DNA of 64,000 nt from Bacteroidota bacterium. Its GTDB lineage: Bacteria > Bacteroidota > Bacteroidia > Cytophagales > Spirosomataceae. A program made the translations under genes and the position numbers. Positions 2,729 to 53,350 of the stretch are shown piece after piece. The stretch's first letter is position 1. Every line of letters starts with the position of its first letter. The stretch lies in NCBI GenBank assembly GCA_040387735.1, contig JAZKDE010000056.1, forward strand, positions 4,395 through 68,394. Direction: 5' to 3'. The notes under the pieces are model-generated. The model saw nothing but the letters and a program-made list of their open reading frames with translations. It searched no databases and was not told the origin of the DNA.

Positions 2729-3853
2729 ATGTACGCACTAAAGAACGGAAAAATATTTACTTCTGAGGAAATTATTCACAATAATATTATTCTTATTGAG
2801 GGAGAAAATATCAGTAAAATCATTCCCGAAGAGAATGATGAAGAAATCGACCCTGACACACAAATAATTGATTTAAAAGGACTTAACATCTCACCTTCCT
2901 TCATTGACATTCAGATTTACGGTGGCGGAGGAAGTTTGTACAACTCAAAAACAACGGAAGAGACCATCCGTAAAACCTACATTGAGATTCGGAGCCAAGG
3001 GACTACTCATTTTCAAATAACACTTTCATCAACACCATTAAATAAAATTTTGGAGTCGATAGAAGTAGCAAAAGATTATCTCAAAAATGGCGGTAAAGGT
3101 TTAGCAGGATTACATTTAGAAGGCCCTTTTTTTAGCTTTCCAAAACGTGGAGCCCACGTAGCAGAATTCATTCGAAAACCAACTAATGAAGAATTACAAA
3201 CCATTATTCAAGCCTGCATAGGTTTACCAACCTACATGACGATTGCCCCCGAAGAATTTACGAATGAGCAGTTACAAATGCTTCTGGACAGTGATATTAT
3301 TGTGGCGGCAGGTCATAGTTCGGCAACTTATCATCAAGCAATGGATGCTTTTGGAAAAGGTATTAAACGGGTTACGCATTTATTCAATGCTATGTCGCAA
3401 TTTCAAAGCCGTGAACCTGGCTTGGTTGGAGCAACTTACGACTCCGATGTTTGGGCGAGTATCATTCCAGACGGCATTCACGTGGATTTTACGAGTATCA
3501 GGATTTCTAAAAAGGTGATGGGCGAAAGACTATTTATCATCACCGATGCCGTAACCAATGACACTTCTGGCGATTATAAATTTATTCACGCTGGTACACA
3601 TTATATCGATTTAAAAGGTACGCTTTCGGGTTCGGCACTTACGATGATTCAAGGCGTTAAGAATTGCGTTGAACAAGTCGGCATTTCACTCGAAGAATCC
3701 CTCAGAATGGCATCAACATATCCTGCCAAAGTTTTGAATTTAGATCAGCATCTCGGAAAAATAAAAGCTCATTACCAAGCGAATATGGTAATTTTTGATG
3801 ATAATTTTGTGGTGAAAGGCATTATTGAAAGTGGGTGCCTTGAATGGTTTTAA
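2729..3853 (+). CDS. nagA: N-acetylglucosamine-6-phosphate deacetylase
   Basis: 374 aa. Has the amidohydrolase pattern of NagA (HLEGPF, AAGHS, THLFNAMS, IPDGIHV, TDA). Confidence 0.85.
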   Translation: MYALKNGKIFTSEEIIHNNIILIEGENISKIIPEENDEEIDPDTQIIDLKGLNISPSFIDIQIYGGGGSLYNSKTTEETIRKTYIEIRSQGTTHFQITLSSTPLNKILESIEVAKDYLKNGGKGLAGLHLEGPFFSFPKRGAHVAEFIRKPTNEELQTIIQACIGLPTYMTIAPEEFTNEQLQMLLDSDIIVAAGHSSATYHQAMDAFGKGIKRVTHLFNAMSQFQSREPGLVGATYDSDVWASIIPDGIHVDFTSIRISKKVMGERLFIITDAVTNDTSGDYKFIHAGTHYIDLKGTLSGSALTMIQGVKNCVEQVGISLEESLRMASTYPAKVLNLDQHLGKIKAHYQANMVIFDDNFVVKGIIESGCLEWF

Positions 3854-45256: not shown

Positions 45257-45280
45257 AATTTATCCGTAAGTGTTATTACA

Positions 45281-45369
45281 CCGAGAGCCACAGAGTTTAA
45301 GACGAGAACCACAGAGTATTTCCAAGTATTTTCTGTGGTTCTCGTCTTAAATTCTGTGGCTCTCTGCGG
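45281..45369. repeat. CCACAGAG-type nested palindrome, copy A (no associated gene)
   Basis: A 34-bp stem pairs 45283-45316 with 45331-45364 (two G-U, no mismatch), with a 14-nt loop. Contains GAGAGCCACAGAG, TTTAAG and GAGAACCACAGAG, with the CCACAGA words 21 nt apart. Confidence 0.9.
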
Positions 45370-46490: not shown

Positions 46491-46816
46491 TAAGTTTCGT
46501 GGTTTTATCAATTCGTAAAATTACGGAATAATCTTATCGTATTATCCTGTTTTCATTAAAACTCGTTTTTTCAAATAAGGTTTTAAGATTAAAGTATCAT
46601 TTGGACTAAAATCGCTATTGTTTGGGCGTTTGGCGGTATGTAGAATTGAATATTTATTTGGAAATTTGTAAGGTAAAATACCTATAAATCTCAAAACTAT
46701 GCAATAATTGAAAATTTCCGTAGAGAAAAGTTTTGTTATTGATTGTTATGCTTCGGAAAAGCAAAACCTTCGTAGAAAATAATTAAAGAAGAAAAACAGA
46801 GAACAAATTTTTAAAT

Positions 46817-48217
46817 ATGAATAATCCAACAACCTTATTCGACAAAGTGTGGGACGCACACGTTGTTCGTAAAATCGAAGATGGTCCAGATGTATTTCTG
46901 ATTGACCGCCACTTTATCCACGAAGTAACCAGCCCAGTTGCATTTTTAGGCCTGGAAAGTCGTGGCATTGGTGTCCTTTATTCAGAGCGTACTTTCGCTA
47001 CTGCTGACCACAATACGCCAACTATTAACCAACATTTACCTGTTCAAGACCCACTTTCTGCTAATCAATTGCAACAATTGGAAACGAACTCGGCAAAATA
47101 TGGTATTTCGCACTGGGGATTGGGACACGCTAAAAATGGTATTGTTCACGTAGTTGGACCAGAAAATGGTATCACACTTCCAGGGATGACCATCGTTTGT
47201 GGTGACTCTCATACTTCTACGCACGGTGCTTTCGGAGCAATTGCATTTGGTATTGGTACTTCGGAGGTTGAAATGGTACTTTCTTCGCAGTGTATTATGC
47301 AACCGAAACCAAAGAAAATGCGTGTAAACGTAAATGGTAAATTGGGGAAAGCGGTTACACCAAAAGACGTTACTTTGTACATTATCGCTCAACTTTCGGC
47401 GGCAGGTGCTACGGGTTATTTCGTGGAATATGCGGGAGATGTGTTCGAGAATATGTCAATGGAAGGACGTATGACGGTTTGTAATATGTCAATCGAAATG
47501 GGTGCGAGAGGTGGAATGATTGCTCCAGATGAAACGACTTTCAATTACTTGAATGGCCGTGAGCAAGCTCCCAAAGGAGAAACTTGGGACAGAGCATTGG
47601 CTTACTGGAAAACCCTTAAAACGGACGATGGAGCTACTTTTGACCTTGAATATACTTACAATGCAGAAGATATTGAACCACAAATTACATACGGTACAAA
47701 CCCAGGTTTAGGAACGGGTATTTCTAAAAATATTCCTTTGGCAACTGACGTAATTGACGGTGAAGCAAGTTATAAAAAATCATTGGGTTACATGGGATTT
47801 GCCGAAAACGAATCAATCATCGGGAAACCAATTGATTATGTTTTCTTAGGTTCATGTACAAACGGTCGTATCGAAGATTTCCGTGCTTTCGCTTCAATTG
47901 TGAAGGGTCGCAAAAAAGCGGATAACGTAACGGCTTGGTTAGTTCCAGGTTCGCACGTGGTTGAAGCTCAGATTAAAGAAGAAGGTATTTTGGATATTTT
48001 GACAGAAGCAGGTTTCTTACTTCGTCAGCCAGGATGTTCGGCTTGTTTAGCGATGAACGACGATAAAATTCCTGCTGGAAAATATGCCGTTTCAACGTCA
48101 AACAGAAACTTTGAAGGTCGTCAAGGCCCAGGAGCAAGAACGCTTTTAGCTTCGCCATTAGTGGCAGCAGCAGCAGCGGTGACGGGAAAAGTTACAGACC
48201 CTCGGGAGTTTTTATAG
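46817..48217 (+). CDS. leuC: 3-isopropylmalate dehydratase large subunit
   Basis: 466 aa. Aconitase-family motifs ([37 protein letters not shown]). Confidence 0.96.
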
Positions 48218-48232
48218 GTGTATTTGAGGGGA

Positions 48233-48384
48233 TTTAGAGGGAAAGAGGTTACACAGAGAGCCACAGAGTTTTAAAATGAGAACCACAGAGAAAAAATCTC
48301 TACGTCTTTCTCATTTTCTCTAAAAATCTCTGTGGTTCTCAATTTTTTCTCTGTGGCTCTCTGTGTAACCTCATACCCTCTAAA
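48233..48384. repeat. CCACAGAG-type nested palindrome, copy B, directly upstream of the GxxExxY pseudogene
   Basis: Three stacked stems: 48233-48241/48376-48384, 48245-48268/48349-48372 (24 bp perfect) and 48278-48290/48328-48340 (13 bp perfect). Shares AGAGCCACAGAG ... GAGAACCACAGAG with copy A. Confidence 0.9.
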
Positions 48385-48410
48385 CAGGCTCAGATAAACA
48401 TAACAACAAA

Positions 48411-48782
48411 ATGGAAATAAACGAAATTACCAGAATAATCATTGGGTGTGGTATTGAAGTTCATAAACAGCTTGGTCCAGGTTTACTTGAATCAGCTTAT
48501 GAAGAATGTTTAGCTTTTGAATTGAAACAAAAAGGCTTACAAGTTTAAAGACAAAAAGCATTACCCATTCAATACAAAGACATCCAATTAGAATATGGTT
48601 ATCGAATAGATTTATTAGTTGAAAATACAGTGGTTATCGAATTGAAGAGTGTTGATATTTTACATCCATTACACGAAGCACAGATATTAATTTACATGAA
48701 ATTTGCTGAAAAGAAAATTGGGCTTTTAATGAATTTTAATGTACTTGCTTTGAAAGATGGCGTGAAGAGATTTATGAAATAA
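48411..48782 (+). pseudogene. GxxExxY protein (PD-(D/E)xK nuclease-like) gene with an in-frame TAA at codon 46
   Basis: Not in ORF track. My translation is [122 protein letters not shown]. The GLLESAY signature and D..(E.K) core are present. The stop at 48546-48548 falls where family members usually have Glu (GAA). Confidence 0.8.
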
Positions 48783-48831
48783 AAATTATATGGAATCTGA
48801 TTTCCATAAGAAAATAAAGCAAAATAAAATA

Positions 48832-49428
48832 ATGGCATACGATAAATTTACGGTACTTCGTTCGACAGCAGTGCCACTTCCAATAGAAAATGTCGATACT
48901 GACCAAATCATCCCTGCTCGTTTCTTGAAAGCTACGAAGCGTGAAGGTTTTGGCGATAATTTATTCAGAGATTGGCGTTATAACAACGACGAATCTCCAA
49001 AGCAAGATTTCGTCTTGAATAACCCAACTTACTCAGGTTCAATCCTTGTAGGTGGTCGTAACTTCGGTTCGGGTTCAAGCCGTGAACACGCCGCTTGGGC
49101 GATTTATGACTACGGTTTCCGTTGCGTAATTTCAAGCTTCTTTGCAGATATTTTTAAAGGTAATTCTTTGAATATCGGTATTTTACCAGTAACTGTTAGC
49201 CCAGAATTTTTAGATAAAATCTTCTTGGCAATTGAAGCTGACCCAAAAGCAGAAATTGAAGTAAATCTTCCAGAGCAAAAAGTTACCATTGTAGCATCGG
49301 GTGAAAGCGAAGGCTTTACCATCAACGGTTACAAAAAGAACAACATGCTCAACGGTTTTGATGATATTGACTATCTACAAAGCATGAAAGGTGAAATTGC
49401 AGCATTTGCAGAGAAGAGTCTTTATTAA
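48832..49428 (+). CDS. leuD: 3-isopropylmalate dehydratase small subunit
   Basis: MAYDKFTVL.S.AVPL..ENVDTDQIIPARFLK and GSSREHA. The ATG at 48832 matches the family N-terminus, and the ORF-track start at 48790 adds 14 aa. Confidence 0.95.
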   Translation: MAYDKFTVLRSTAVPLPIENVDTDQIIPARFLKATKREGFGDNLFRDWRYNNDESPKQDFVLNNPTYSGSILVGGRNFGSGSSREHAAWAIYDYGFRCVISSFFADIFKGNSLNIGILPVTVSPEFLDKIFLAIEADPKAEIEVNLPEQKVTIVASGESEGFTINGYKKNNMLNGFDDIDYLQSMKGEIAAFAEKSLY

Positions 49429-49431
49429 GAA

Positions 49432-49577
49432 GTTGCGAATTGTAAGTTGTGAGTTGTGAGTTAACGAGCAGTAAATTGTATTTGTGAATTATTAATTATG
49501 AGAAAACTCATGAAAACTCACAATTCACTACTCACAGTTCACAATTCACAACTCATCATTCGCTCATTCACAATTGA
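49432..49577. repeat. leuD-leuA spacer made of about 21 phased heptamers in inverted arrays
   Basis: Left half: GTTGCGA ATTGTAA GTTGTGA GTTGTGA GTTAACG AGCAGTA AATTGTA TTTGTGA ATTATTA ATTATGA. Right half: AACTCAC AATTCAC TACTCAC AGTTCAC AATTCAC AACTCAT CATTCGC TCATTCA CAATTGA. Confidence 0.85.
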
Positions 49578-49579
49578 AT

Positions 49580-51097
49580 ATGCGACACATAGAAATAATG
49601 GACACGACGCTTCGTGATGGTGAACAAACCAGCGGAGTGTCTTTCTCGGCTTCTGAAAAGCTAACGATTGCTCAGTTACTTTTGAAAGAAGTAATGGTGG
49701 ATAGATTAGAAGTCGCTTCGGCAAGAGTATCGGCGGGTGAATTTGATGCGGTTAAGAAAATTACCGAGTGGGCGGCTGAGAATGGTTGTTTGGATAAAAT
49801 TGAAGTTTTAACCTTCGTTGACGGTGACACTTCGGTCAATTGGATGTTAGAAGCGGGTGCAAAAGTGATGAACCTTCTCACAAAAGGCTCATTAAATCAC
49901 CTCACGCACCAACTCAAAAAAACACCCGAACAGCACTTTTCTGAAATCGCTCAGGTGATTGCTTTGGCTCGTTCTAAAGGAATTTTGTGTAATGTTTATT
50001 TAGAAGATTGGAGTAATGGAATGCGTAATTCTCCCGAATATGTTTTTCAATACCTTGATTTTTTGACGAAAGAACCCATCGAAAGAGTGCTTTTGCCCGA
50101 TACTTTGGGAGTATTGACACCAAGAGAAACCTTTGATTTCTTGGATGCTATCGTAAAACGTTACCCAAATACGCACTTCGATTTTCATGCTCATAACGAT
50201 TACGATTTAAGCATTGCCAATGTCATGGAAGCCATTCGTGCGGGCGTACAAGGCTTGCACTTAACCGTGAATGGCATGGGAGAGCGTGCAGGAAATGCTT
50301 CTTTGGCAAGTACCATTGCGGTAATCAACGATTTTATGCCCGAAGTGAAGACGATGGTAGTTGAAAAATCTTTGTATTCGGTAAGTAAATTGGTAGAGAC
50401 TTTTTCGGGTTTCAGAATTCCAGTGAATAAGCCAGTTGTAGGTGAAAATGTTTTTACGCAAACGGCTGGTATTCATGCGGATGGCGACAATAAAAAGAAT
50501 CTTTATTTCAACAATTTAATGCCCGAACGTTTTGGTCGATTGCGTCAATACGCTTTAGGAAAAACCTCTGGAAAGGCAAATATTGAGAAAAATTTGCAAG
50601 AATTAGGGATCACTTTAGCCGATGCCGATTTGAAAAAAGTAACGCAAAGAATTATCGAATTGGGTGACAGAAAAGAAGCCGTAACTCGTGAAGATTTGCC
50701 GTATATTATTTCGGACGTATTGGATAGCAGTGCCATTGAAGAAAAAGTTATCGTATTGAATTACGTTTTGACACATTCTAAAAACCTAAAGCCTTCTGCC
50801 ACTTTACAAGTAAAAATTGGCGAAGAAATTTTTGAAGAATCTGCTCAAGGAGACGGACAATATGATGCCTTCATGAACGCCTTGAAGAAAATATATTGTC
50901 AAAAGAATATCGAACTTCCACAACTGACGGATTATGCCGTAAGGATTCCACCAGGAGGAAAAACCGATGCCCTTTGTGAGACGATTATTACGTGGGCTTA
51001 TAATGGTAGAAGTTTAAAAACTCGTGGACTCGACTCTGACCAAACAGTTTCGGCTATCATTGCGACACAGAAAATGCTGAATATAATTAGCGTTTAA
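49580..51097 (+). CDS. 2-isopropylmalate synthase / (R)-citramalate synthase family enzyme
   Basis: IMDTTLRDGEQT.GVSFS, the HAHND metal site and a C-terminal LeuA-dimer regulatory domain. The N-terminal block (LL.E..VDR.EVASARVS.GE) looks to me more like the CimA/LeuA2 subgroup, so the substrate is ambiguous. Confidence 0.85.
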   Translation: MRHIEIMDTTLRDGEQTSGVSFSASEKLTIAQLLLKEVMVDRLEVASARVSAGEFDAVKKITEWAAENGCLDKIEVLTFVDGDTSVNWMLEAGAKVMNLLTKGSLNHLTHQLKKTPEQHFSEIAQVIALARSKGILCNVYLEDWSNGMRNSPEYVFQYLDFLTKEPIERVLLPDTLGVLTPRETFDFLDAIVKRYPNTHFDFHAHNDYDLSIANVMEAIRAGVQGLHLTVNGMGERAGNASLASTIAVINDFMPEVKTMVVEKSLYSVSKLVETFSGFRIPVNKPVVGENVFTQTAGIHADGDNKKNLYFNNLMPERFGRLRQYALGKTSGKANIEKNLQELGITLADADLKKVTQRIIELGDRKEAVTREDLPYIISDVLDSSAIEEKVIVLNYVLTHSKNLKPSATLQVKIGEEIFEESAQGDGQYDAFMNALKKIYCQKNIELPQLTDYAVRIPPGGKTDALCETIITWAYNGRSLKTRGLDSDQTVSAIIATQKMLNIISV

Positions 51098-51249
51098 AAA
51101 ATCAAGTAGAAGGAATTCTAATGTGATTTTGGAGTGAAGGTTCAAAGGATTTTTGCCAATAAAATACCAAAAGCTACCTTTTTTCTTTGTGCCTTGGTGG
51201 CAAAACATTCACTAATAAACTTAGAGCCTTTGTGGCTAAATACAATAAA

Positions 51250-52320
51250 ATGAAAAAACATATCTTAGTAGTCCCAGGTGACGGAATTGGGCAAGAAGTA
51301 ACAACCGTTGGTAAAAAAGTTTTAGAGAAAATCGCTGAGAAATTCGGACATGAATTTACGTATGACGAAGCTCTTATCGGTCACGTAGCTATTGAAGCAA
51401 CAGGAGTTCCACTTCCTGAGGAAACTTTAGTTAAAATGCGTGCTTCTGACGCAATCCTTTTCGGAGCAGTTGGTCACGCCAAATACGACAACGACCCACA
51501 CGCTAAAGTGCGTCCAGAGCAAGGTTTATTGAAAATGCGTAAAGAATTAGGTTTGTACGCAAACCTTCGTCCAATCAAATTATTTGATGAATTGTTAGAA
51601 GCATCTTCTATTAAGCCAGAAATTTTGAAAGGAGCAGATATTCTTTTCTTTCGTGAATTAACGGGTGACGTTTACTTCGGCAAAAGAGAAAGAATCGACG
51701 AAGGAAATACTGCTTATGACACGATGATTTATAGCAAATATGAAGTTGAGCGTATTGCACGCAAGGCTTTCGATGCAGCCATGACTCGTGGTAAAAAATT
51801 GATGTCAGTTGACAAAGCTAACGTATTGGAATCGAGCCGTTTGTGGAGAGAAACTGTACAAGAAATTGCTCCAGAATATCCAGAAGTAGAGGTGACGCAC
51901 CAATTTGTGGATTCTTGTGCGATGATGTTAATTAAAGACCCAAAACAATTTGACGTAGTCGTTACAGGTAATTTATTTGGAGATATTTTGACGGATGAAG
52001 CTTCTCAAATTGCAGGTTCGATGGGAATGTTAGCATCGGCTTCAATCGGTGATAGCACAGGTGTTTATGAACCAATTCACGGTTCTGGGCACGATATTGC
52101 GGGTAAAGGCATTGCAAATCCAATGGCTTCTGTTTTATCGGTTGCTTTATTATTAGATATTTCATTTGGTTTAAAGGCAGAAGCAGAAGCAGTGATTGCG
52201 GCGATTGACTCAGTCTTGAAAGCAGGTTTCCGTACTGGAGATATTGCCACAAAAGATACGCCAAAAAATATGATTTTGGGAACTGATGCAATCGGAGAAG
52301 AGATTCTAAATAGATTATAA
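51250..52320 (+). CDS. leuB: 3-isopropylmalate dehydrogenase
   Basis: MKKHILVVPGDGIGQEV, NLFGDILTDE and GS.GM..SAS. The ATG at 51250 is preferred over the ORF-track start at 51187. Confidence 0.96.
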   Translation: MKKHILVVPGDGIGQEVTTVGKKVLEKIAEKFGHEFTYDEALIGHVAIEATGVPLPEETLVKMRASDAILFGAVGHAKYDNDPHAKVRPEQGLLKMRKELGLYANLRPIKLFDELLEASSIKPEILKGADILFFRELTGDVYFGKRERIDEGNTAYDTMIYSKYEVERIARKAFDAAMTRGKKLMSVDKANVLESSRLWRETVQEIAPEYPEVEVTHQFVDSCAMMLIKDPKQFDVVVTGNLFGDILTDEASQIAGSMGMLASASIGDSTGVYEPIHGSGHDIAGKGIANPMASVLSVALLLDISFGLKAEAEAVIAAIDSVLKAGFRTGDIATKDTPKNMILGTDAIGEEILNRL

Positions 52321-52337
52321 TTATTAGATTTTAGTCA

Positions 52338-52381
52338 AACAAAAAGCTGACGAAGTAATACACTTTGTCAGCTTTTTGTTT
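52338..52381. terminator. Bidirectional terminator between leuB and the LD-carboxypeptidase gene
   Basis: An 18-bp stem aaacaaaaagctgacgaag/ctttgtcagctttttgttt (one G-U). A and T runs are built into the stem ends. Confidence 0.85.
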
Positions 52382-52402
52382 TCATTTTATTCCAAGAAAT
52401 TA

Positions 52403-53350
52403 TTACATAGTCAAAGCATCTTCCGTTAAGAAAACGCCATTTTGGGCTACTTTCAAGGTTAGTATTCTTCCACAAGGCATTGCCCAATTATCAGCTTCGT
52501 GTCCAACAGGAAAATCATAACAAACAGGAAAATCATAATCCGCAACGGCTTCTTGAATTATCTCATTGGCAGTTTTACCAAAAGGGACATTATTGTCCTG
52601 ACAATCCGAAAAACTCCCCACAATCAATCCTGCCAGATTTTGCAATTTCCCGCTACGTTTTAATTGTATCATCATACGATCAATGCTGTACAAATACTCA
52701 TTTACGTCTTCCAAAAACAAAATCTTTTCATCATAATTAATATCTGACTTTGAACCAGTTAGATGAGAAAGCATAGCTAAATTACCCCCAATTAATTGCC
52801 CTCTCGCTAAACCAAAACGATTCATCTCATTCGGAAGAATTTCATATAAAAGAGGCTCACCAAATAGTAATTTCCTAAGACTTTCTAATGAGTACTCACC
52901 GCCTTCTTGCAAAAATAGTTTGGGCATAGTAGCGTGTAAACTTTCAATATTCAAGGTATGAATATGACAATGAACAGCAGTAATATCTGAAAAACCAACA
53001 ACCCATTTAGGTGATTTCTGAAAGGTTCCAAAGTTAAGATTATCCAATAATCGAGAACTCCCATAACCCCCTCTGGCTGAAAAAATCGCCTTAATTTCTG
53101 GATTATCCAACATCAATTGAAAGTCATTTCTACGTATTTGGTCAGTCCCCGCAAACTGGTGGTATTCACTCCTGAGGGATTCGCCTAAAATAACGGTTAA
53201 ACCCCAAACATTTTCCATCAATTCAATGGCTGGCTTGAGAACTTCAAAATCGACTTTGCAGGCTAATGCCAATAAGCCTACAGTATCACCTTTTTGTAAA
53301 GAATTTGGTCGCAAAATTTCCGAATTATTGGTTAAATGGGTAGTCGTCAC
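52403..53350 (-). CDS. LD-carboxypeptidase (S66 family, LdcA/MccF-like)
   Basis: 315 aa from a GTG start, with the GYSD-type nucleophile region (GFSDITA) and a C-terminal H/E region (PVGH). Confidence 0.8.
   Translation of the reverse strand: MTTTHLTNNSEILRPNSLQKGDTVGLLALACKVDFEVLKPAIELMENVWGLTVILGESLRSEYHQFAGTDQIRRNDFQLMLDNPEIKAIFSARGGYGSSRLLDNLNFGTFQKSPKWVVGFSDITAVHCHIHTLNIESLHATMPKLFLQEGGEYSLESLRKLLFGEPLLYEILPNEMNRFGLARGQLIGGNLAMLSHLTGSKSDINYDEKILFLEDVNEYLYSIDRMMIQLKRSGKLQNLAGLIVGSFSDCQDNNVPFGKTANEIIQEAVADYDFPVCYDFPVGHEADNWAMPCGRILTLKVAQNGVFLTEDALTM

Follow-up and report, generated by a model that had tools for sequence, protein, structure and literature searches.

The 64-kb window of Bacteroidota DNA analyzed here (the whole stretch, with coordinates counted from its first base) carries, at 48411–48782 on the forward strand and in the spacer between leuC and leuD, a gene of the GxxExxY family that is interrupted by a single in-frame stop codon. 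Our favored reading, to which we assign a probability of about 0.7, is that this is a recent null allele of a resident nuclease gene housed in a cassette of inverted short-repeat arrays, together with the mechanism proposed below. The observed part of that reading, comprising the identity of the gene, a real and recent null allele, residency under selection, the array architecture, and the transcription of orthologues, is held with high confidence.

An earlier note, written from the sequence alone, had proposed a hidden GxxExxY (PD-(D/E)xK) gene at this position, with a GLLESAY signature and a D...E.K core, and had pointed out that the list of open reading frames (ORFs) misses it. Both statements are borne out. 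The list shows only a 45-aa piece (48411–48548) and a GTG-started 50-aa piece (48630–48782), each shorter than 60 aa, and the underlying frame is a full-length GxxExxY / PDDEXK_3 reading frame with 123 sense positions. It starts with ATG at 48411, ends with TAA at 48780–48782, and contains exactly one internal stop, the TAA at 48546–48548 (codon 46), precisely where the note had placed it. When this stop was read as Glu, the protein matched NCBIfam TIGR04256 with 149.6 bits over positions 1–115 of 116 (cutoff, 35 bits) and Pfam PF13366 (PDDEXK_3) with 148.7 bits over positions 2–117 of 117 (cutoff, 22 bits), the latter being its sole Pfam match. Each half also matches alone, with 50.5 bits (positions 1–41) and 85 bits (positions 43–115), and membership in the family is far past chance. 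The motif codons (G24-L-L-E27-S-A-Y30) lie at 48480–48500, and both the catalytic-core codons (D67 ... E77-x-K79; 48609–48647) and the QxxxY motif (Q91 ... Y95; 48681–48695) follow downstream of the stop. NCBI names the Runella and Arcicella orthologues at the leuC–leuD site "GxxExxY protein". What fails here is a hallmark of the family, the uninterrupted ORF of ~120–130 aa, and the window copy, a GxxExxY gene by descent, counts as a pseudogene or null allele. No further paralogs of the same GxxExxY clade were found in the 64-kb window.

Logan contigs from twelve metagenome runs (X1–X12) were aligned to the region in a survey of the allele. Base 48546 is T (TAA) in X1, X2, and X10, three of the twelve runs, and G (GAA) in the other nine (X3–X9, X11, and X12). 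The X1 contig is identical to the window, the X2 contig carries seven other differences, and the three TAA runs come from different studies and sources (X1, watershed; X2, food production; X10, freshwater). Of 24 aligned relatives, 20 have Glu at position 46, 2 have Gln, and 2 have Leu. One substitution, G to T, converted the Glu46 codon GAA into TAA, as the earlier note had read it. The note had also named a sequencing error as an alternative. An error of sequencing or assembly in an intact gene would agree with a frame that is only one base off intact and with close relatives that are all intact, but the same T was assembled independently in three runs, which excludes a sequencing error; with G present in nine runs and the split 45-aa and 50-aa calls borne by one Logan contig, we give this explanation virtually no weight.

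The earlier note had left two outcomes side by side, recent inactivation or a tolerated stop, and the results separate them. Tolerance by read-through, recoding, or a two-piece protein that keeps the gene working would suit the intact remainder of the frame and the low ratio of nonsynonymous to synonymous substitution rates (dN/dS) of the window gene against intact orthologues (~0.05). However, TAA is the usual stop of the window, ending 30 of its 41 long ORFs, and no tRNA genes, and thus no suppressor tRNA, lie within it. The first in-frame start past the stop is a GTG at codon 74; because this lies beyond the catalytic Asp67, a functional C-terminal piece is impossible, and the allele is null because its 45-residue product is devoid of any catalytic residue. 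The TAA lineage also went on to acquire further changes. Among the runs compared, T94I (48690–48692, within the QxxxY motif) and V113A (48747–48749) are confined to the lineage of the window and X1: base 48691 is C (Thr94) in X2–X7, X9, X11, and X12, and base 48748 is T (Val113) in X2, X3, X5, X6, X7, X9, and X11. Thr94 is invariant in 54 homologues, and V113A also falls at a conserved position. Since X2 has the TAA and neither T94I nor V113A, the nonsense mutation came first and the further damage later, an order that fits the prediction of relaxed selection. A low dN/dS would in any case be expected from a very recent mutation, and we consider a tolerated stop very improbable, if slightly less so than an error. 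Because dN/dS is still ~0.05, the nonsense mutation and the later damage are all recent. The window copy is a recent null allele segregating in natural populations, and loss of the gene is evidently non-lethal. In-frame stops occur in 2 of ~100 GxxExxY copies. Two more copies are decaying. The one at L166 239–610 has an in-frame stop at codon 40. In the other, the Runella aurantiaca orthologue (L045), ACG replaces the ATG start at 3566–3568, and the NCBI protein of that species is 140 aa long and starts further upstream at a codon read as CTG.

The gene is an old occupant of its site. When 5.8 billion proteins were searched, homologues numbered in the thousands, and the nearest (91–94% identity) are all intact, 123 aa long, and have Glu at position 46. 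The intact orthologues in loci L081–L088 (93–94% identity) occupy the same leuC–leuD position. Contigs were looked up for six homologues ranging from 94% to 70% identity (P0001, P0004, P0015, P0025, P0047 [Runella sp.], and P0063 [Arcicella rigui]), and all six genes lie between an aconitase-family leuC and leuD; R. aurantiaca likewise carries the gene in this spacer. The dN/dS values of the orthologues are 0.03–0.19, and their dN nearly equals the dN of LeuD when the same pairs of genomes are compared. Amino-acid distances of the GxxExxY protein and LeuD are correlated (r = 0.84), with the small gene evolving ~1.5 times faster. The shared site, the co-divergence with LeuD, and the low dN/dS are together the marks of a gene that is old, passed on vertically, and under purifying selection, and it is a long-term vertical resident of the leuC–leuD spacer in a Cytophagales group that includes Runella, Arcicella, and uncultured relatives. 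The junction check in relatives that the earlier note had suggested therefore speaks against its own view of the spacer as an odd place for an insertion, as does the presence of a small spacer gene in roughly one in four of the 80 Bacteroidota leu operons surveyed (see below).

The same pattern extends beyond the leu operon. Copies that are at least 85% identical in DNA always occupy orthologous sites with shared flanks, and recent mobility, sought as similar copies at different sites, was not found among them. Presence/absence variation among close relatives, a hallmark of homing endonucleases, was not seen; all close relatives carry the gene. A metagenome scan added 80 further homologues (54–74% identity), none of them in a leu operon, and 28 of these 80 loci (e.g., L147 1501–1872) share a second site, formed by one conserved pair of uncharacterized genes. 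The flanking proteins at this second site have diverged to ~50% identity. Given the orthologous-site rule and the second conserved site, long residency seems to be the rule for such cassettes. An earlier impression that many metagenome copies lie between cphB and cphA was discarded: only L176 (1474–1875) does so, and the common second context is the other gene pair. In L215 (2501–2872), a cassette lies between mod and res of a type III restriction-modification system.

The other half of the element, which the earlier note did not mention, is a 190-nt hairpin (48215–48402) located between leuC and the gene. It carries both arms of the cassette on a 37-nt loop. The 54-nt arms are 83% complementary and the inner arms 95%, and the RNA fold has an energy of −98.7 kcal/mol (z = −13.6). 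The arms are made of CACAGAG units. On the forward strand, the left arm (48249–48290) reads TTACACAGAG-AGC-CACAGAG ... GAGAAC-CACAGAG, with three CACAGAG cores, and the right arm (48328–48368) holds three CTCTGTG cores and ends with CTCTGTGTAA. No Rfam family matched the hairpin above threshold, and sub-threshold matches to plant miRNA precursors were set aside as the generic noise of long hairpins. No T-run follows the hairpin, and a sigma-70 and terminator scan of the spacer, together with a search for TAnnTTTG, gave nothing convincing.

The arm modules of the window also flank the orthologues in L045, L092, L095, and L096 and the 80 metagenome homologues, and the outermost unit (TTACACAGAG / CTCTGTGTAA) is found repeatedly at the ends of cassettes across many loci. 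In L092, L095, L045, and L096, two-module arms stand on both sides of the ORF, one touching its start codon and the other its stop codon. In the window clade (the window, L081, L084, and L089), both arms are upstream with a 35–45-nt loop, the gene follows 36–60 nt later, and no arm lies downstream of it; the sequence directly past the right arm is homologous in both layouts. Nearly all of the 80 metagenome homologues are bracketed by inverted arrays. Within 150 nt upstream, the median number of forward CACNGAG cores is 4 (at least 3 in 56 of 71 loci), and within 150 nt downstream, the median number of reverse cores is also 4 (at least 3 in 59 of 75 loci). With a background of 0.11–0.13 CACNGAG per 150 nt, the flanks are ~30-fold enriched. 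Array units are spaced 10 or 11 nt apart, and the first reverse core begins 1 nt past the stop codon in 35 loci. Stem-forming repeats enclose the ORF in L045, L092, L095, L096, and most of the 80 metagenome loci, and in the L092 transcript the fold of lowest energy pairs the two arms with the ORF between them (z = −4.7).

The identity of the core follows the protein clade. It is CACAGAG in copies with 58–79% identity to the window protein, CACGAAG in some copies at 57–72%, GACGCAGAG at 54%, and CGCAAAG or GCGCAAGG at 46–52%. Between the two arms of one cassette, cores are 96% identical and linkers 67%, and variants at the fourth base of the core are equally frequent in both arms and uncompensated. 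These values show that the motif itself is conserved, beyond what mere pairing requires. The repeat also occurs away from the gene: a two-module CACAGAG hairpin without a gene occupies another intergenic region of the window (45276–45366), between two minus-strand genes, with arms that are 97% complementary across a 16-nt gap and 88–90% identical by blastn to the arms at 48233–48384. In the X1 contigs, arm sequence runs into at least five other flanks. Viral contigs held distant members of the family only, and these lacked arrays. The cassette is thus defined as a small ORF in operon orientation, with no detectable promoter, and inverted arrays of 10–11-nt units with a CACNGAG core. The literature that was searched, on the GxxExxY family and PF13366, on the arm sequence, and on REPIN/RAYT systems of Bacteroidetes, contains no description of it.

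The encoded protein has the expected nuclease core, as judged from alignments and a structure model, with no close solved relative. Across four alignments, D67 and E77 never vary, and K79 has a conservation of at least 90%. Little or no variation occurs at Q91 and Y95, and the QxxxY motif follows ExK; D, ExK, and QxxxY form the residue set of RecB-, Cas4-, and lambda-exonuclease-type nucleases. Profile searches gave weak Cas4-like matches (PADLOC Cas4, E 3.9e-5, 22 bits; PHROG "CRISPR/Cas associated", E 2.7e-4) and a weak RecB-like match in NCBIfam (E 7e-3), and no defense-system assignment came from PADLOC or PHROGs. A single-protein search of the PDB returned chance hits only, and three profiles of rising diversity yielded no hits even at E values as high as 10. 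For the intact orthologue P0001, an AlphaFold2 model computed from an alignment of 80 diverse sequences reached a predicted local distance difference test (pLDDT) score of 95.2 and a predicted template modeling (pTM) score of 0.88; a previous model from a narrow alignment, with a pLDDT of 61, was set aside as poor. The best Foldseek neighbor of the P0001 model is the alkaline exonuclease LHK-Exo (E 4e-3, template modeling [TM] score 0.49), and Cas4 SSO0001, lambda exonuclease, Bax1, and MGME1 are further neighbors. Two members of the representative library, P0121 and P0123, are natural tandem GxxExxY fusions of 276–295 aa whose second domain has partly lost the catalytic motif. Such fusions with a degenerate second domain suggest that the protein may work as a dimer. 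The family comprises 30,690 cluster representatives at E ≤1e-3, and the searched literature contained no function or biochemical data for any member.

The flanking genes and the remaining spacers of the operon place the cassette in a wider setting. In the window, leuC (3-isopropylmalate dehydratase large subunit) is a 466-aa ORF at 46817–48217 on the forward strand, with a TAG stop at 48215–48217. In 80 Bacteroidota loci, the gene upstream of leuD belongs to the aconitase family and is 81–94% identical to it, and the leuC genes of the orthologues carry the Pfam Aconitase domain. The small-subunit gene leuD (48832–49428, forward strand) has its ATG 49 nt past the GxxExxY stop, a distance that the earlier note had given as 50 nt, and its product is 93% identical to the LeuD of an Arcicella metagenome-assembled genome (MAG). 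A leader of ~300 nt without an ORF precedes leuC (46512–46816), in which an E-value Rfam scan of 46500–52500 found nothing.

The 80 Bacteroidota leu loci, fetched with LeuD, were surveyed for small genes in their spacers. Ten GxxExxY genes and ten four-helix-bundle genes were present, amounting to about a quarter of the operons, all in operon orientation. The four-helix-bundle family is the one found in 23S rRNA intervening sequences (23S_rRNA_IVP). Its members lie in leu spacers at L012 3596–3955, L024 3608–3964, L017 3598–3947, and L051 2156–2370, and after leuA in L002, L008, L019, L030, L034, and L037, with inverted arrays on both sides that are built from other units (TAGGCT, AAGGCA). Decay is visible in this family as well, with L017 frameshifted and L051 largely degraded. 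Strong gene-less hairpins occupy the leuC–leuD spacers of L003, L032, L063, L071, L068, L019, L037, and L061; they consist of inverted tandem short units that differ from lineage to lineage, and the arms of L061 resemble those that flank the four-helix-bundle genes of L012 and L024. This resemblance suggests that the gene-less hairpins are relics of lost cassettes. Across other Bacteroidota, the same spacers hold other GxxExxY clades, four-helix-bundle genes, pseudogenes, or gene-less hairpins, and in some genera they are empty. In the window itself, the leuD–leuA spacer (49433–49544) contains a hairpin whose inverted units are of the GT(G/A)AGTT type and whose 52-nt loop lacks an ORF; it has the look of a vacant cassette belonging to another arm family. 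The leuA–leuB spacer (~51170–51240) contains CTTTGTGCC / TTGGTGGC units and no gene, and these units resemble the arms of a second GxxExxY cassette in the Arcicella MAG (L001 4442–5019).

The mechanism that we propose is a tentative one in each of its steps. The gene may be expressed by read-through transcription of the leu operon; co-transcription is inferred because the spacer shows no conspicuous promoter or terminator signal, and metatranscriptome contigs cover intact orthologues. The arms might pair in the RNA and form a double-stranded stem that is processed or acts as an insulator, so that the operon tolerates the insert, by analogy with 23S rRNA intervening sequences. The protein could be a Mg-dependent DNA nuclease built on a minimal core of the RecB/Cas4/lambda-exonuclease type, probably a dimer. 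Its likeliest substrate, if this picture is followed, would be the CACNGAG arrays, both in its own flanks and in the dispersed gene-less hairpins, in the way that RAYT proteins relate to REPINs; each of these four steps we judge somewhat less probable than its negation. Over the long term, an intact cassette would be expected to pass through a pseudogene to a gene-less hairpin, as in the decay series of relatives (the frameshifted L017, the degraded L051, and the gene-less hairpins of L061 and other loci).

Several observations weigh against this proposal. The putative link between protein and arrays is one of co-occurrence, and the main counter-evidence to it is that arms of similar architecture flank non-nuclease genes or no gene at all; since similar arms accompany four-helix-bundle genes or stand empty, they may not depend on the nuclease. 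The similarity to the Cas4 and lambda-exonuclease fold is weak (best E 4e-3, TM score 0.49). Neither compensatory covariation nor G-U asymmetry was found between the arms, so that any selection for RNA pairing as such is putative. The ORF is not enclosed by the arms in the window, L081, L084, and L089, where the picture of an excised loop, in its present form, is inapplicable. Finally, the metatranscriptome contigs that cover intact orthologues come from related strains, not from this one, and may hold DNA.

A broader proposal, which we regard as unlikely on present evidence, is that the GxxExxY genes and the four-helix-bundle "IVS protein" genes are the coding cores of one widespread and undescribed class of Bacteroidota cassette, in which a minimal RecB/Cas4-like nuclease that recognizes its own arrays maintains or spreads the gene-less hairpins. 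Each cassette would then be an ORF bracketed by inverted, clade-specific heptamer arrays at helical-turn spacing, would settle, and stay for very long times, both in rRNA and in spacers within conserved operons, and would represent a PD-(D/E)xK counterpart of the RAYT/REPIN relationship.

Two other explanations address the cassette as a whole. The element could be a recently arrived selfish mobile element, comparable to a free-standing homing endonuclease, that is decaying after fixation. The family is huge and patchy and has been listed as "Unknown, multiple transfers" (PMC3424549), pseudogenes arise sporadically, and the turnover of spacer occupants from genus to genus, including empty spacers, is what such an element would leave behind. 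Yet orthologues spanning 94% to 70% identity have stayed at one site, co-diverging with LeuD under strong purifying selection, no similar pair of copies sits at different sites, and the second site has been kept while its flanking proteins diverged. Cassette turnover occurs on the time scale of families, not of strains, and we see a recent selfish arrival as improbable, though the least so of the alternatives considered. Marginally less probable still is that the arms are intercistronic stem-loops that serve the host in the stability or processing of leuC/leuD mRNA, with the gene as neutral cargo. Repetitive extragenic palindromic (REP) sequences and bacterial interspersed mosaic elements (BIMEs) of enterobacteria are intercistronic stem-loops of this kind, affecting mRNA stability and processing. 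Gene-less inverted-array hairpins do fill leuC–leuD spacers across Bacteroidota, the leuD–leuA spacer of the window holds one too, and a null allele in 3 of 12 runs is what neutral cargo would permit. Against this, dN/dS of 0.03–0.19 maintained over genus-level divergence, at a protein rate near that of LeuD, is unexpected for cargo, and the heptamer core is conserved far past the needs of pairing, in the absence of compensatory changes.

Taken by itself, the nonsense allele is a routine young pseudogene at an ordinary single locus, and one that annotation pipelines will split or drop. The repeat-flanked cassette, undescribed in the literature searched, deserves follow-up. A family of more than 30,000 sequence clusters without known function gains a sharp anatomy, with clade-specific heptamer arrays on both sides, and a record of vertical residency in essential operons under selection as strong as that on LeuD. 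The label "domain of unknown function" becomes a testable proposal, namely that the protein may bind or cut CACNGAG and that the arms may be processed in the transcript. The old puzzle of ORF-bearing rRNA intervening sequences is linked to equivalents in mRNA operons. Within one species, strains with TAA and strains with GAA occur in nature and lend themselves to comparison, and if the two gene families do form a single class of cassette, the TAA allele of the window would be a natural knockout of such a system.

Among known systems, the window copy shares with the GxxExxY family (TIGR04256; PF13366) a full-length match, the GxxExxY motif, the D...ExK core, and a length of ~123 aa, and differs from it by the nonsense codon at position 46. 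With Cas4, RecB, and lambda exonuclease the protein shares the D, ExK, and QxxxY motifs, the weak Cas4 profile matches, and its best structural neighbors. In contrast to them, it is about half the size, aligns with a TM score of ~0.5, and has no CRISPR or recombination-gene context. Cas4 contains a four-cysteine Fe-S cluster, which is not present here, where Cys13 and Cys33 are the only cysteines of the 123-aa sequence.

The closest analogues are 23S rRNA intervening sequences and RAYT/REPIN systems. In Coxiella burnetii's 23S rRNA intervening sequence (IVS), an ORF for a four-helix bundle lies in the loop of a stem formed by 28-bp terminal inverted repeats and cut by RNase III, tandem heptamers lie beside the ORF, and the ORF is reported to be decaying (PMC4990558). 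The common features are a small, decay-prone ORF with adjoining tandem heptamers, placed (outside the window clade) in the loop of a stem of terminal inverted repeats, an element that rides in a highly conserved host transcript, and the same ORF family (23S_rRNA_IVP), which fills leu spacers of other Bacteroidota. The cassette differs in occupying the mRNA operon spacer between leuC and leuD and not helix 25 or 45, in encoding a nuclease and not a four-helix bundle, in having its ORF outside the arm pair in the window clade, and in being under strong purifying selection where the Coxiella ORF decays. Excision by RNase III belongs to the IVS, and the cassette is known from sequence and from metatranscriptome contigs of relatives. 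The GxxExxY family is reported to be multi-copy in many genomes, which sets it apart from RAYT genes, as do the PD-(D/E)xK nuclease in place of an HUH/Y1 (IS200-like) transposase and arrays of 10–11-nt units in place of single REP palindromes. RAYT genes are flanked by the REP sequences that they are thought to disseminate and are vertically inherited (PMC3116915, PMC5581495). Mobilization of hairpins by the GxxExxY protein is so far unsupported, and the likeness is one of sequence features: in both systems a gene is bracketed by inverted short repeats, the repeat co-varies with the protein clade, and the gene is inherited vertically at a fixed locus under purifying selection. Gene-less inverted pairs, dispersed in genomes with RAYT genes, have a counterpart here in the one such copy of the window and probably in the five or more other flanks of the arm sequence in X1.

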